A DNA stretch of 64,000 nt from a phage. The position numbers and the translations under genes are program-made. The stretch lies in the sequence record PZ445521.1; one strand, 5' to 3'. This document shows positions 9,908 through 57,850 of the stretch, piece by piece (position 1 is the first letter of the stretch; each line of letters starts with the position of its first letter). A model generated the notes under the pieces. That model was not told where the DNA came from and made no database searches. It saw only the letters and a list, made by a program, of their open reading frames with translations.

Positions 9908-9945
9908 CAATTAATTATACCACATCCTTGTGGTAAAGTAAACTA
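9908..9945 (-). promoter_or_regulatory. early promoter (-35 TTTACT, -10 TATAAT)
   Basis: agtaaa 9937-9942, attata 9914-9919, 17-bp spacer; overlaps the 3-prime end of gene 39. Confidence 0.6.
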
Positions 9946-51607: not shown

Positions 51608-51778
51608 TTAATTTCGCAATTTATTAAGTTCTTCATCATCAATCCAGGATTCTAATCCTGATGGCAGGTCACATTCAATTTCCCAAAGAAGTTCTTCAAT
51701 TTTATGAAGACGATCTAATTCTTCAACAGGAATAGTAACCATTGATGGAGCTCTTGCTGCACTAATATCGTATATCAT
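51608..51778 (-). CDS. hypothetical protein, about 56 aa
   Basis: Track ORF 51608-51817 trimmed to the internal Met after the upstream stop. Confidence 0.45.
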   Translation of the reverse strand: MIYDISAARAPSMVTIPVEELDRLHKIEELLWEIECDLPSGLESWIDDEELNKLRN

Positions 51779-51780
51779 AT

Positions 51781-51996
51781 TTACCCCAGTTTGACCATGC
51801 AATCGCCGTATTTCCACTTAGAAATAGACTTTTCACCATTAGAATAATAAACTTCGAGTTTAGCACGATTATTTTTAATTTGAATAACCTTGGCTGTCAT
51901 CAAAGTTCCATACCCATAATAAACTGCAACCTCATCACCTACATATACCGCGCTTCCGCGGTAATCATGGATATAATCAGTTCCTTCGAGAATCAT
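51781..51996 (-). CDS. hypothetical protein, 71 aa
   Basis: ORF track. Confidence 0.45.
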   Translation of the reverse strand: MILEGTDYIHDYRGSAVYVGDEVAVYYGYGTLMTAKVIQIKNNRAKLEVYYSNGEKSISKWKYGDCMVKLG

Positions 51997-52502: not shown

Positions 52503-52892
52503 TTAATCCAAAATATTATTAGGCATTGGTTGAACACTCACAAGTTCTTTAAAGAACTCAGTAGAGTCAGGCAATTTAACCATTTCCGGAGCATGCTTAC
52601 TGAATTTATGTTTACATTGACGGCATTTATATTCAAGCTCTGGTTTACGCCAGTTAATCAACTGAACTTGTTCAGTACCGCATTCAGGGCAATTAGGAAC
52701 GTTTTTAGAAGCTCTTTCACGTCGTTCAACCATAGCCATAATAGCATCCCATGCTGGAGGTTTAAAATCTAAATCGTCGCAGCCGTGAATCTTTCCACGC
52801 ATTTCCATATCATCTTCCTCACCAGCCATAATAATTTTAATTAAACTGGAATTACTTGAAGCTGCAATGTCTTCTAATAAACGCTTTTTCAT
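52503..52892 (-). CDS. zinc-ribbon protein, 129 aa
   Basis: CPECG ... CRQCKH motif. Confidence 0.5.
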
Positions 52893-53818
52893 TTCAATAC
52901 CTCAATAGCATTACGTAAACCATTTGCTTTTGCATTAAGAGCTTTTAACAATTTGGTGTGTTCTGCAATTTGGGCTTCAACTTCAATCAAACGGGCATTG
53001 AGATATTCACGTTCTTCACTCAGATTATCAACCTTTTCCACTTTAGGCTCTTTTACAACTGTCTTATATGTATTAGGGTTCTTCAGTTTAATTAGAATGC
53101 GTGAACTGTATAACATTGAACCATTATCTTCGGTTTCGTCATACATTTCCACTACGTCCATAATTTTTAACATCATGCGGAGTTTATAAGACAACGAACG
53201 AATAGTTTTGTTGTGCTTATTAATTTCTTTAGCTGTCATGGTGCCAAGATTACGTGAGTAATAATAAGGAACCTGGATATTAATTAATACTGATGAACCA
53301 CCTGGCTTGTGTGTTACTTCATCAGCAATAACCCAGTCCTTAACATGAACTGTATTTGTACGGTCATCGCCCGCGGTAAATAGTTTGCGAGCATGCTTAA
53401 AAAGCATATTCACTTGGGTATTGAATTGACAAGCAAATTTATCAGCAAATTTAGTTTCAGGAATGGTAGATAACCAATCAGCCAAATGGGTCTTTTTAAC
53501 ATCGTTAACAATAGTAAATTCAACCAAATCGGTTATAGATGTCGCAGTTTTAATGAATCTCGGCTTCATAAAGTTTTCAATGTTATCACGAGCTACAGTA
53601 GAAGATAACATACGAGAACGTTTAAACCATTCAAGCAAATTGCCTAACGAATGAGAATAAGCGTTTTGAGTATCTTTACAGATATGATTTTCCTGGCCAA
53701 CATATTGAAGGAAATCACGAAGAATATTATTGATTACTGCTCTGTGTCCTATCTGATAATTACGATGTTTAGTAATAAGACTGTCAAAATAATCAATATA
53801 ATGTTTACGAGTTTTCAT
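52889..53818 (-). CDS. coiled-coil family protein 1, 309 aa
   Basis: N-terminus MKTRKHYIDYF; C-terminal heptad coiled coil; tandem family member. Confidence 0.6.
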   Translation of the reverse strand: MKTRKHYIDYFDSLITKHRNYQIGHRAVINNILRDFLQYVGQENHICKDTQNAYSHSLGNLLEWFKRSRMLSSTVARDNIENFMKPRFIKTATSITDLVEFTIVNDVKKTHLADWLSTIPETKFADKFACQFNTQVNMLFKHARKLFTAGDDRTNTVHVKDWVIADEVTHKPGGSSVLINIQVPYYYSRNLGTMTAKEINKHNKTIRSLSYKLRMMLKIMDVVEMYDETEDNGSMLYSSRILIKLKNPNTYKTVVKEPKVEKVDNLSEEREYLNARLIEVEAQIAEHTKLLKALNAKANGLRNAIEVLK

Positions 53819-53870
53819 GTTCTTCTCACTTGGTTAATGATTTATACTCCGAGCCATCCTTGGCTTTAAA

Positions 53871-54872
53871 TTACTTAATTAACTGTAAAGCTTGTTCAAG
53901 ACGATCCAGGCGATTAACAGATTCTTCCCAAATCCTTTTAGCCTGCTCATATTCTTTCTGCGCTTTATTAGAAATTTCTAGAACTTCTTTATAAGCTTTT
54001 TCTAATGCAATAACTTCTGGACGAATTTCTACCGGTTCAGGCGAATCATCAAGATTATCCATTAGTTCCTCAAGGGTAGTTTCTTCTTTAGGAGTATTCA
54101 CAATTTCATCACATTTTTGTTGGTAAATTTCTTTATCAGTAGGTGAATAAGCACATTTCACTTCACGAAGACTAATTACAATTTTATATCCTTCCCAGCC
54201 GCATATATTCTTAAAAGGATATGTATGAATATTTTCTACTGTTTCCATACAAAGTAATGCGGTCTCTAATTGACGAGTTATAGTGCTAGCAATTGAGAAA
54301 AATTTATTAATATTCTTTTGGTTAGTTTCTGGTGTAAAAAATCCATAATTCACAAAAATAGATACTTTATTTTTATCAAGTTCATATTCTTTTATGATAA
54401 TCATGTCAGAAGCCAAAGGATGAATTTGACGATAATCACCATAACATAATTTAGAAGCTGATTTTAGAATTTGCTTCTTAAAAAGTCTGAAATTACTAAT
54501 CCAACGACGAGTAAAAATATTCTCAGGGTCTTCTTTATTATTAAGATGATAAGAATTAACATCACCGAACCAATTATATCCTACTACATCTTTGGTTCGT
54601 TTAATTTCTTTCCCAAAATTACCAAGAATATCCCGATTAACCAAATATGAAAGAAGACGAGACTCTTTAAAGGTTTTCTTGATAACATCTTTATCTACAC
54701 GACTAGAAATTTTACGAATTTCATGAATAAATTTAGTAGAAGAAACAATACTTGCATCAACACTATTGAGCCATTGATTGATAATAGAAAGAACGATATT
54801 TTGACCAAACATCGGTATAGCTTTATCATCAATAACGCTATTGAATGATTTGATATATTCGTTACGAGTCAT
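53871..54872 (-). CDS. coiled-coil family protein 2, about 333 aa
   Basis: Track ORF trimmed to MTRNEYIKSF (GAGGAG Shine-Dalgarno); shares FKKQILKSASKL-type block with next ORF; C-terminal coiled coil. Confidence 0.6.
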   Translation of the reverse strand: MTRNEYIKSFNSVIDDKAIPMFGQNIVLSIINQWLNSVDASIVSSTKFIHEIRKISSRVDKDVIKKTFKESRLLSYLVNRDILGNFGKEIKRTKDVVGYNWFGDVNSYHLNNKEDPENIFTRRWISNFRLFKKQILKSASKLCYGDYRQIHPLASDMIIIKEYELDKNKVSIFVNYGFFTPETNQKNINKFFSIASTITRQLETALLCMETVENIHTYPFKNICGWEGYKIVISLREVKCAYSPTDKEIYQQKCDEIVNTPKEETTLEELMDNLDDSPEPVEIRPEVIALEKAYKEVLEISNKAQKEYEQAKRIWEESVNRLDRLEQALQLIK

Positions 54873-54894
54873 ATTAATCTCCTCATTAGAAAGT

Positions 54895-54932
54895 AAGAAC
54901 ATTATACCACATCCTTGTGGCGAAGTAAACTA
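54895..54932 (-). promoter_or_regulatory. early promoter (-35 TTTACT, -10 TATAAT)
   Basis: agtaaa 54924-54929, attata 54901-54906, 17-bp spacer; near-identical to the promoter at 9908-9945. Confidence 0.55.
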
Positions 54933-55955
54933 GTTTAGTGCATTTAGTGCATTGTTCAGTTTAGAACGTTGCTTTGTCAGATTTTGAACCCTTGACTGAG
55001 CTTGTTCTAACACCTTTTCAGCTTCTAGCACTTCATTGGTCGCTTTAACGAGTTCATCATCTACTGCCTTAAGAGACTTCTCAATCGCGTCAGCGTGCCA
55101 TTTTTCTACAGGTTTAAGACTCGGATTTTCAACAGGAAGAAAATTCACTTTATTGAATTTCCATGCATCATTATTACCTGAACTATACATCCAAAATTTA
55201 GAATCGTTTGATGAGTAATTGGATAAATTTAAATTTAAGTTATCTTGCACTTCTTGCTTTTTCTCTTGCGGGACTTCGTCCTTTCTCAAAAAATCGTATT
55301 TAAATGAAACGATCATATCAAGTTCATATGTTGTCGTATCTAACTTAAATCGTTCAAAACGAGGTAAAATCTTAGATTGAACAGCAGCAACAACATCCAT
55401 ATACTTAAATGCTTCTGTCAACTGTGATTTAAGACATTCACAAATTGAAAGAGAATTTTTAGTATTAGGCTTAAAGCTAATTCGTGCAGTTCTATTATTT
55501 TCTTTAGATGGTCTTACTTCCATTTGAAGAGTATAACCATCAAATTTCAAATTCTTTAAGTTAATATCAGAACCTTTTAATCGACTAGCAGTAGACAAAA
55601 TTTGCTTTAATTGTTTACGGAATAGAGCAATAAATCTCCATTCAAGACGATAATGATTTGGATTAAAAAATCCTGTTGATAAATCAACCTTACTCTGACC
55701 AATGCCTTGAACAAATAGAGGATTTTTATAATCAATAGTTTTACAGAAATCGGTGAGCTGCTCACGAGCAGTCATTTGTGTAATATATCCCGCTTTACTA
55801 AAATGACGTAACCATTCACTGCTATTCATATATTTAAAGTGAATATCACGATTAACTTTATCAGGGTCTAAATTATTTTGGCACAAAAATGTCATAACAT
55901 CACGAGTATAGCTGGCATTACGAACCATATCTTCAATTTGAGAACGAGTTTTCAT
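54930..55955 (-). CDS. coiled-coil family protein 3, 341 aa
   Basis: MKTRSQIEDMV; RKQLKQILSTASRL block; C-terminal coiled coil. Confidence 0.6.
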   Translation of the reverse strand: MKTRSQIEDMVRNASYTRDVMTFLCQNNLDPDKVNRDIHFKYMNSSEWLRHFSKAGYITQMTAREQLTDFCKTIDYKNPLFVQGIGQSKVDLSTGFFNPNHYRLEWRFIALFRKQLKQILSTASRLKGSDINLKNLKFDGYTLQMEVRPSKENNRTARISFKPNTKNSLSICECLKSQLTEAFKYMDVVAAVQSKILPRFERFKLDTTTYELDMIVSFKYDFLRKDEVPQEKKQEVQDNLNLNLSNYSSNDSKFWMYSSGNNDAWKFNKVNFLPVENPSLKPVEKWHADAIEKSLKAVDDELVKATNEVLEAEKVLEQAQSRVQNLTKQRSKLNNALNALN

Positions 55956-55963
55956 GGTGTTCC

Positions 55964-56866
55964 TTAAGATTTAAGTAAATCAACAATTTTAATTAACTTT
56001 TCACGCTCAGATTTAGCTTTACTACTCAATCCAGATAGTCTGAATATTTCATCATCATATTGTTGAATAGAAATATTTAGCTCTTCTATTTGTTTACTGA
56101 AATAATCAATCTGCTCGGAATATTTTTCATTACTGCGAACTGGTACAGGTTTTGTAGGAAATTTAGTTAAACTGGATTCATCCGGGCGATAAATTAAAAT
56201 GCAATTTGAACCAATCGGGCATTTAGCACCAGATGAATATTCTAACGTTCCAGCTTCTTTTAAAACTTCAAAAGCTAAACAGAGATGATGCCCCATATTA
56301 ACATAATCTGTAGAGCGAGCTCTGACGTAATAATCATCGCCGCGAATACTAAATTTAAAGCATTTAAGGTCTTCTGTATTATTGGTCTTAAAAATCATTT
56401 GTTTATCTAGACCTTTAGCTAATCGAGCGCCTAATGCTAATAATCGTCGTTGATTTTCCCACAAATCCGTAATCATTTGATCGAATGATAATTTAGGCAT
56501 TAGTCGACCATAAAGGTCATATCCTTTATTATAATTGCGAAGGATTTCACTCGCATTAATACGAGACAACGCTCCAATTTTATTAAGGGCTTTCATGATG
56601 CGATTAGATAAACCCATTCCAGACCCATTTGTTCGTTGTAAATGTTTTTCTAATCCAAATCCAATATCAACTTTAAATTTATCTAAAATTTCAGCATGAA
56701 CATCTCTGTCAATAACATTCAAATCCAAAGTTGGGTTAAATCTATGAAAAAATTTATCTGGCTCTCCACGACGAAGTACAGTCCATTCATTTAATTTTTT
56801 ATTAACTAAAGATTTAATTACTGCATTGACATTATTAATTACTACTGACATATTTTTCTCACTCAA
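55964..56866 (-). CDS. coiled-coil protein, 300 aa
   Basis: ORF track; C-terminal coiled coil (QIEELNISIQQYDDEIFRL...). Confidence 0.6.
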   Translation of the reverse strand: MSEKNMSVVINNVNAVIKSLVNKKLNEWTVLRRGEPDKFFHRFNPTLDLNVIDRDVHAEILDKFKVDIGFGLEKHLQRTNGSGMGLSNRIMKALNKIGALSRINASEILRNYNKGYDLYGRLMPKLSFDQMITDLWENQRRLLALGARLAKGLDKQMIFKTNNTEDLKCFKFSIRGDDYYVRARSTDYVNMGHHLCLAFEVLKEAGTLEYSSGAKCPIGSNCILIYRPDESSLTKFPTKPVPVRSNEKYSEQIDYFSKQIEELNISIQQYDDEIFRLSGLSSKAKSEREKLIKIVDLLKS

Positions 56867-57296: not shown

Positions 57297-57320
57297 ATTA
57301 TACCATCCTTGGTATAAAGC
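57297..57320 (-). promoter_or_regulatory. middle promoter-like (GCTTTA, 12 bp, TATAAT)
   Basis: Minus strand reads CGCTTTATACCAAGGATGGTATAAT. Confidence 0.4.
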
Positions 57321-57322
57321 GG

Positions 57323-57850
57323 TTATGCGAGTACCGTCTTTAACCGTTCTTCAAACTTCCGAAGAGTATTTTGGCGTTCAGCTCTTTGCTTTTTGTAAGT
57401 TTCAATACGCTCTGAAATGAGAGTGTATCGTTCATTTACTGATTCTTTCATAAAATCAGGAATTTCACGAGAAGCTTTAATCTCATCAAATTTATCAATA
57501 ACAGCTTGCTCTTCAGCAATTAAGTTATCATACATCAAAATATCTTTCTTGATGAACTCAATATCTTCTTGAGTTACACGAGATAATTTAGATGCTTTAT
57601 CCTTTTTGTACTGTTCGTTAGTATCACGAGACCAGTGTAATGTACGATTTTTATTCGTATTCTTGTAAATTTCTACAATACCAATCTCATCAATAATAAC
57701 GATCCAATTCCAACGAGATTTGTAAATTTGTCCTCCGTCAACCGTGATTTCACCTCCGATTGAGATGTCATTAAAGAACTTGCTTTGTGCTTCAGATTTA
57801 AATTTACCATCGTTGTAATTTACCAGGTTGAAAATATCTTTAGCGTTCAT
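57323..57850 (-). CDS. hypothetical protein, 175 aa
   Basis: Track ORF trimmed to MNAKDIF after the promoter/leader; C-terminal coiled coil. Confidence 0.55.
   Translation of the reverse strand: MNAKDIFNLVNYNDGKFKSEAQSKFFNDISIGGEITVDGGQIYKSRWNWIVIIDEIGIVEIYKNTNKNRTLHWSRDTNEQYKKDKASKLSRVTQEDIEFIKKDILMYDNLIAEEQAVIDKFDEIKASREIPDFMKESVNERYTLISERIETYKKQRAERQNTLRKFEERLKTVLA

Follow-up and report, generated by a model that had tools for sequence, protein, structure and literature searches.

The nrdC.3-nrdC.6 genes of a T4-type phage as a diversifying paralogue array with a possible role in counter-defence

The window analyzed here is a 64,000-nucleotide stretch of phage DNA (sequence record PZ445521.1), in which four consecutive minus-strand genes occupy positions 52889-56866. 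We read this array as the Shigella phage JK38 copy of T4 nrdC.3-nrdC.6, a group of paralogous, non-essential early genes that likely forms a counter-defence set, and we give this reading a probability of about 0.55. The 5-kb stretch around the array is 100% identical to JK38 (Tequatrovirus, MK962755), and 742 records of T-even-type phages match it. The four genes were recognized as orthologues of T4 nrdC.3, nrdC.4, nrdC.5 and nrdC.6 from the annotations of T4 and JK38 and from synteny: nrdC.2 flanks the array on one side and nrdC.7, which encodes a membrane protein, on the other, endonuclease VII and the NrdC thioredoxin lie upstream, and each protein resembles its T4 counterpart over its full length. 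Identity to the T4 orthologue is 60% for nrdC.3, 98% for nrdC.4, 94% for nrdC.5 and 96% for nrdC.6. An earlier sequence-only reading of the window had placed four consecutive genes here, for proteins of 300-343 amino acids (aa). Its open reading frames (ORFs) hold, and two of its starts do not: nrdC.4 encodes 333 aa and nrdC.6 295 aa. Translation of nrdC.4 begins at the ATG at 54872 (MTRNEYIKSF), with GAGGAG ahead of it; the alternative ATG at 54902 was discarded because it falls in the -10 box of a promoter. For nrdC.6 the start is the ATG at 56851, as annotated in JK38 and T4, the 300-aa version of the ORF using an upstream TTG. The genes are as follows:

52889..53818, minus strand: nrdC.3 homologue, 309 aa; phrog_1435 (E 6.8e-116); paralogue of nrdC.4, mosaic allele
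53871..54872, minus strand: nrdC.4 homologue, 333 aa; phrog_1435 (E 9e-169); PF26897 on its homologues
54930..55955, minus strand: nrdC.5 homologue, 341 aa; DUF7235/PF23882 over the full profile, 403 bits (cut-off 30); phrog_2351
55964..56851, minus strand: nrdC.6 homologue, 295 aa; phrog_2257; PF26899 on its homologues

The kinship of the four proteins was examined by pairwise and by profile alignment. With BLASTP only one pair among six is significant, nrdC.3 versus nrdC.4 (E 5e-8, 26% identity over 226 aa); profiles or structure are needed for the others. PHROGs likewise keep nrdC.3 and nrdC.4 together in phrog_1435 and place nrdC.5 and nrdC.6 each in a separate group. Pfam holds three families for the four genes (PF26897, DUF7235/PF23882 and PF26899), and its DUF7235/PF23882 model is matched by none of nrdC.3, nrdC.4 and nrdC.6. 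Family alignments were made from database homologues together with the arrays of Gaprivervirus, Dhakavirus and Mosigvirus, and compared by HHalign, with column-shuffled nulls for the comparisons that involve nrdC.5. In a first round, with shallow alignments, the probability for nrdC.5 was just 41-47%, a point which deeper alignments and the shuffle null resolved. HHalign gave a probability of 97.7% for nrdC.3 versus nrdC.4 and of 92% for nrdC.3 versus nrdC.5, where E was 7.5e-7 and the score 53.3; the null for this pair was 15.2 +/- 2.7 (z = 14), and 0 of 60 shuffles reached the score. The combined nrdC.3 and nrdC.4 family against nrdC.5 gave 87% (score 50.0, z = 16.6). Between nrdC.5 and nrdC.6 the score was 27.9 against a null of 14.3 +/- 2.3 (z = 6, 0 of 60 shuffles), over a helix motif that the two share. 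All these profile alignments run collinearly, and none of them depends on the C-terminal coiled coil, which lies outside the aligned parts. From these alignments nrdC.3 and nrdC.4 are clear paralogues, and nrdC.5 is assigned as a paralogue of both; nrdC.6 joins the family weakly by sequence and clearly by predicted structure. The array of diversifying paralogues proposed from the letters, with at least three members, thus extends to all four genes. None of the five neighbours tested against the family profiles (nrdC.2, nrdC.7, nrdC.8, nrdC.9 and nrdC.10) matched.

Two motifs anchor the alignments in all four proteins. The first is (K/R)xGx(L/I)(S/T)xxxAxxxLxx(F/Y)xK. The second is a helix, RW/RF-I..FR...K.IL..A.(K/R)L, and corresponds to the internal block (RWISNFRLFKKQILKSASKL versus RFIALFRKQLKQILSTASRL) that had been picked out from the letters. 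Taken alone, these 20 residues are not significant by BLASTP (E 0.42). They sit within the significant collinear profile alignment, where they correspond to helix 119-140 of the nrdC.4 model, and the same element is present in nrdC.3 (KFACQFNTQVNMLFKHARKLF) and nrdC.6 (MITDLWENQRRLLALGARLAKG). The N-terminal resemblance proposed for at least three of the proteins is also real: T2 and R3 of the M(K)TR motif do not vary among 28 sequences of the nrdC.3, nrdC.4 and nrdC.5 families, and nrdC.6 is the member without it. Two candidates were set aside during this work. One, a 173-aa protein with an unrelated N-terminus joined to the nrdC.5 coiled coil (P0230), comes from an 803-bp metagenome contig, may be an assembly chimera and was excluded as evidence; the other (P0236) is a repeat artefact. 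After the ORF of the former (locus L021, 120-641) come the early promoter and nrdC.4 start known from the array; it represents either a real module swap or an assembly chimera.

AlphaFold2 models were used to compare folds. The nrdC.4 model (mean predicted local distance difference test score, pLDDT, 84) and the nrdC.6 model (mean pLDDT 79) present the same elements in the same order: a helical domain at the N-terminus, a pair of short helices, a first beta-hairpin, a long helix, another beta-hairpin, a linker of low confidence and finally a long terminal helix. Searched against BFVD, both match, at a probability of 1.00, the same set of about eight uncharacterised proteins of 300-370 aa, whose source phages are of the T4 type and belong to Pectobacterium, Enterobacter, Acinetobacter, Yersinia and Serratia. 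Further matches of the nrdC.4 model are a 308-aa protein of the nrdC.3 type (19% identity, E 2.3e-8) and the NrdC.6 of JS10 (E 3.8e-5, probability 1.00). A weak Foldseek match of the same model is a 175-aa protein of Klebsiella phage KPV15. These two models suggest one fold common to the family: a bundle of helices at the N-terminus, an alpha/beta core made up of the two helices, the hairpins and the long helix, whose fold may resemble that of phage tail terminators, then a disordered linker and the terminal heptad helix. The central regions had been described as divergent. This is not a simple divergence, as the centre contains the conserved core fold. Searches of PDB sequences returned no solved structure related to the family, and the PADLOC and NCBIfam defence and anti-defence models gave no meaningful match. 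Sub-threshold matches to PHL, integrase-SAM, BrxC and PgrA models were dismissed as noise or coiled-coil bias.

Each protein ends in a heptad-patterned helix, as had been claimed for stretches of 40-50 residues. The C-termini concerned are 49-58 residues long and keep a single unbroken heptad register, in which 81-88% of the a/d positions are hydrophobic versus 18-29% elsewhere. Significance was tested against shuffles, with P <= 0.003 in all four cases. The helices, with the hydrophobic fraction at a/d positions and at the other positions, are distributed as follows:

52892..53038, minus strand: nrdC.3 heptad helix, last 49 residues; 86% versus 29%, P = 0.003
53874..54020, minus strand: nrdC.4 heptad helix, residues 285-333; 86% versus 26%, P = 0.0005
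54933..55106, minus strand: nrdC.5 heptad helix, last 58 residues; 88% versus 20%, P < 0.0005
55967..56131, minus strand: nrdC.6 heptad helix, residues 241-295; 81% versus 18%, P < 0.0005

The structure models agree with this pattern. In nrdC.4 one helix of 48 residues (285-332) follows a disordered linker (274-283), and in nrdC.6 two helices (242-271 and 277-294) follow a disordered linker (227-241). The last 25 residues of nrdC.3 are 100% identical to those of T4 despite the divergent centre of the protein. The C-terminal helix is most likely a coiled coil, through which the protein would oligomerise. A heptad-patterned C-terminal helix was also observed in the nrdC.8 homologue (57323-57850, 175 aa; last 42 residues, P = 0.0055), a protein with no profile similarity to the four-gene family.

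The distribution of the family was then considered. Database searches found it only in T4-type phages. An exhaustive HMMER search of 1.84 billion representatives with the nrdC.5 profile returned 13 proteins and connected them with no other family, and a related-locus search with the nrdC.6 alignment returned 13 loci, all of them from close T-even phages. In the phage collection, tblastn found 654 records for nrdC.3, 554 for nrdC.4, 582 for nrdC.5 and 742 for nrdC.6. The proteins evolve rapidly: identity between genera is 24-51% for the four members of the array versus 67-89% for the flanking EndoVII, NrdC, NrdC.8 and NrdC.10. A comparison of copy number across T-even genomes, which the sequence-only reading had proposed as a check, gave a range of 1 to 4 copies, with deletions and natural chimeras. 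The array consists of nrdC.3, 4, 5 and 6 in Tequatrovirus, of 3, a 5-like gene and 6 in Mosigvirus, and of 4, a 5-like gene and 6 in Gaprivervirus and Dhakavirus. Acinetobacter phage Acj61 has two members, both among the BFVD matches and encoded by the adjacent genes p120 and p121 between nrdC and nrdC.10, i.e. in the slot that the array occupies in T4; the family is therefore old within the Straboviridae, and its position has been kept. Inside such arrays we noted a strongly hydrophobic 71-aa ORF between nrdC.6 and the nrdC.5-like gene in phages VR26 (locus L004, 4733-4948) and WG01 (locus L005, 4724-4939). This ORF of Gaprivervirus and Dhakavirus has no counterpart at that place in JK38 or T4.

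Several alleles bear traces of recombination. The nrdC.3 of JK38 is a mosaic: its first 50 residues are T4-like (84-92% identity), and its centre is Mosigvirus-like (80-92%), with an identity to T4 of 28-56% there, which implies an exchange of the central domain between genera. Phage ACG-C40 (NC_019399; locus L003, 5805-6216) has suffered a deletion: 71 codons of nrdC.5 remain as a stub, the final 72 codons of nrdC.3 come next in another frame, and nrdC.6 is the sole intact member of the family. Another product of an nrdC.5/nrdC.3 junction (P0056) was observed in a different phage. Salmonella phage Manna (PP987310; locus L023, 2715-3752) carries an in-frame nrdC.6::nrdC.4 chimera of 345 aa, in which residues 1 to about 268 of nrdC.6 are joined, at a shared 'DEI', to residues 251-333 of nrdC.4; nrdC.5 and most of nrdC.4 are deleted. 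Judging from this gene content, Manna should be devoid of anti-Dsr1 activity.

The functional part of our reading starts from T4. A T4 clone lacking part of the region does not grow on E. coli ECOR17, nor on MG1655 carrying dsr1 of ECOR17 (PMC9391042), and with T4 nrdC.5 supplied on a plasmid the phage again infects cells that carry Dsr1, a SIR2/NADase defence protein (Srikant, Guegler and Laub, eLife 2022; PMC9391042). The gene at 54930-55955 is the orthologue of this anti-Dsr1 gene in the same position, and its product is 94-95% identical to T4 NrdC.5 over the full length, whereas the other three genes are distant paralogues. A full-text literature search on the four gene names found no phenotype or function for nrdC.3, nrdC.4 and nrdC.6, and the names of the Pfam and PHROG families led to no paper. 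From their paralogy we infer that nrdC.3, nrdC.4 and nrdC.6 are counter-defence genes as well, directed at other targets. All four proteins are soluble, with a size of 34-40 kDa and no transmembrane segment, and three of them are basic (isoelectric point, pI, about 9.2-9.4). As calculated from the sequences, the lack of a membrane segment and the basic charge argue against membrane superinfection exclusion and against DNA mimicry. The array had been presented as a source of host-interaction or exclusion factors: the first term finds support in the action of T4 nrdC.5 against Dsr1 (PMC9391042), and nothing supports the second.

A mechanism can be proposed along these lines. According to a 2026 preprint, Dsr1 has a TPR domain as its sensor, which it shares with Avs7 and with which it recognises the major capsid protein of the phage; the same preprint reports that the Avs15 family recognises tail terminators (PMC12803255). 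The globular body of an NrdC protein would bind and block a sensor, which for NrdC.5 would be the TPR sensor of Dsr1 that otherwise recognises the major capsid protein, and the coiled coil would supply oligomeric avidity. The NrdC proteins would probably act stoichiometrically, each paralogue or allele being tuned to a different immune sensor of the host. The resulting arms race would drive duplication, replacement of alleles, recombination at the level of domains, and loss.

Known systems offer two comparisons. DSAD1, a phage inhibitor of the SIR2 defence DSR2, is a functional analogue of NrdC.5: a phage protein there too opposes an NAD+-depleting SIR2 effector with a sensor for a virion protein (PMC10981675, PMC11087589). 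DSAD1 differs in that its target is DSR2 and not Dsr1 and in that it comes from other phages; the likeness drawn here is one of function, and competitive binding of the sensor by NrdC.5 is a proposed model. The second comparison is with T4's own accessory counter-defence genes, located in hyperplastic early regions: dmd, tifA and adfA of the 'anti-TA island' (TA, toxin-antitoxin) and ipI-III, which are likewise early, non-essential, clustered and variable among T-even phages, and each of which is required only on hosts with a given defence (PMC9391042). These genes are mutually unrelated, whereas nrdC.3-6 form one expanded family of paralogues.

A number of observations weigh against a common counter-defence function. 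Experimental support concerns nrdC.5 alone, in T4, where the activity is known only for T4 NrdC.5 acting on the Dsr1 from E. coli ECOR17 (PMC9391042), and the JK38 protein differs from it at about 5% of its positions. No mechanism of NrdC.5 has been published, and we infer its direct binding to Dsr1. Oligomerisation through the C-terminal helix is predicted from the models. The sequence link of nrdC.6 is weak, with an HHalign probability of 6% and significance in the shuffle test alone, and the placement of nrdC.5 in the fold family comes from profile alignments. Full-length template modelling scores (TM-scores) among family members are modest (0.3-0.5), as expected for three parts that are flexibly joined. 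Finally, the basic charge of three of the four proteins is also compatible with nucleic-acid binding.

This last point opens the way to a rival explanation, in which the paralogues would be regulators of host takeover or nucleic-acid-binding regulators, and the anti-Dsr1 effect of NrdC.5 would be indirect, acting for example through the timing or level of the capsid trigger or through host metabolism. The positive charge lies in the N-terminal and core domains, the N-terminus of nrdC.3 weakly matches a domain of tyrosine recombinases, the SAM-like core-binding domain (E 0.071 in Pfam and 5.6e-4 in NCBIfam, there far short of the cut-off), and the mechanism of NrdC.5, being unpublished, leaves room for an indirect effect. 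The SAM-like matches, however, reach none of the curated thresholds. The array is moreover dispensable in the laboratory and its genes are deleted in natural isolates, which would be unusual for a general takeover factor, and with a conserved regulatory target one would expect less than the extreme divergence between genera, which is better suited to arms races with specific partners. We regard this explanation as unlikely.

A second group of ideas arises from the predicted alpha/beta core, which may resemble, at the level of the fold only, that of phage tail-terminator proteins (lambda gpU, T5 p142, SPP1 gp17-like, Mu, the collar of R-type pyocins; the T4 gp15 class). There is no sequence similarity to these proteins: no tail-terminator Pfam family was found at E <= 1 for the nrdC proteins. 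HHalign of the nrdC family against T4 gp13, gp14, gp15 and gp19 gave no signal either, and a descent from the neck and tail proteins of T4 itself found no support. Unlike tail terminators, the nrdC proteins have a further, helical domain at the N-terminus and a coiled coil at the C-terminus, and their genes are early, dispensable and outside the structural module. It is conceivable, as a long shot, that NrdC.3-6 are an exapted virion fold of the tail-terminator type, made early as oligomeric decoys that would occupy, and not activate, different sensors of the TPR type (Dsr1, Avs-like). Such sensors would normally recognise conserved late structural proteins, and the four genes would together form a general 'anti-sensor' toolkit, diversifying in step with the sensor repertoire of the hosts. 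Very improbable, in our view, is that the proteins descend from a tail-terminator gene and still act in virion assembly, where they might serve as chaperones, or might cap and so poison, in a dominant-negative way, the tails of phages or satellites that compete with their own. A tail-terminator gene would be late, placed in the structural module and essential for completion of the tail; the array belongs to the early region and has an early promoter, and its genes are deleted in natural phages and dispensable in T4 (PMC9391042). As to the idea that unrelated neighbouring coiled-coil proteins came to share these blocks by chance or through their composition, it can point to the five of six pairs without BLASTP significance and to the three families in Pfam and PHROGs, and it is effectively refuted by profile scores 6-17 standard deviations above the column-shuffled nulls outside the coiled coil, by two independent structure models with a common topology and common database matches, and by a syntenic slot conserved across the Straboviridae.

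The counter-defence reading has several implications. T4 is the best-studied phage, and most genes of its nrdC-mobD early region are without function. The genes of the array are long-annotated T4 ORFs, one of them with a published role, and the system is of a known kind; what appears new to the literature searched is the unity of nrdC.3-nrdC.6, their fold and their relatives throughout the Straboviridae. If the paralogy is true, nrdC.3, nrdC.4 and nrdC.6, with their alleles in T-even phages, become candidate counter-defence proteins, and the common architecture of a variable globular body and a constant coiled coil gives a route to the study of NrdC.5 action. Natural variants such as Manna (without nrdC.5) and ACG-C40 (with nrdC.6 only) predict Dsr1-sensitive phages, which is of relevance for the choice of therapeutic T-even phages on the basis of host range. 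A tail-terminator-like core, if confirmed, would tie counter-defence to the bacterial sensing of conserved virion folds.

Early expression is indicated by a promoter within the array, which had been proposed at 54895-54932 and is supported by its consensus, by a strand-biased enrichment and by the annotation of a homologous site in phage ASO78A as a T4 early promoter:

54901..54930, minus strand: T4-type early promoter, GTTTAC-N17-(TG)gTATAAT, between nrdC.5 and nrdC.4

Its sequence, read on the minus strand from 54930 to 54901, is GTTTACTTCGCCACAAGGATGTGGTATAAT. A GTTTAC -35 box, a 17-nt spacer and a TATAAT -10 box are present on the strand of the early genes, and from this position the promoter is assigned to the expression of nrdC.4 and nrdC.3. 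The pattern GTTTAC-N16-18-TATAAT occurs at 7 sites in the window, all 7 on the minus strand, for 0.06 expected. One of the other minus-strand promoters, at 9914-9943, lies 45 kb away and is near-identical to that of the array over 30 bases, spacer included (GTTTACTTTACCACAAGGATGTGGTATAAT versus GTTTACTTCGCCACAAGGATGTGGTATAAT). Recombination at promoter cassettes is described for T4-type phages, and this pair could serve as recombination substrates. Upstream of nrdC.7, on the minus strand at 57297-57320, GCTTTA-12 nt-TATAAT (CCGCTTTATACCAAGGATGGTATAAT) has the appearance of a T4 middle, MotA-dependent promoter; if it is one, it would drive nrdC.7, nrdC.6 and nrdC.5.

Other observations concern annotation and neighbouring genes. 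Many GenBank records label nrdC.3-nrdC.11 as 'thioredoxin', and nrdC.7 of JK38 is labelled 'Mur ligase domain-containing protein'. Neither label has domain evidence behind it; 'thioredoxin' is an annotation carry-over from the name of the locus. The nrdC.2 homologue (52503-52892), which overlaps the nrdC.3 gene (52889..53818), encodes 129 aa in JK38, and T4 nrdC.2 is annotated with 315 nt, i.e. 104 codons; the two share 78% identity across 77% of the length. A zinc-ribbon signature, CPxC...CxxC, is present in the protein of JK38 (E 6.6e-6 for Pfam Zn_ribbon_8, below cut-off). Between gene 49.2 and nrdC, at 51608-51996, JK38 has two small ORFs, annotated with 195 and 216 nt, in the place of the 309-nt gene 49.3 of T4, which makes this interval a further variable spot within the same early region.

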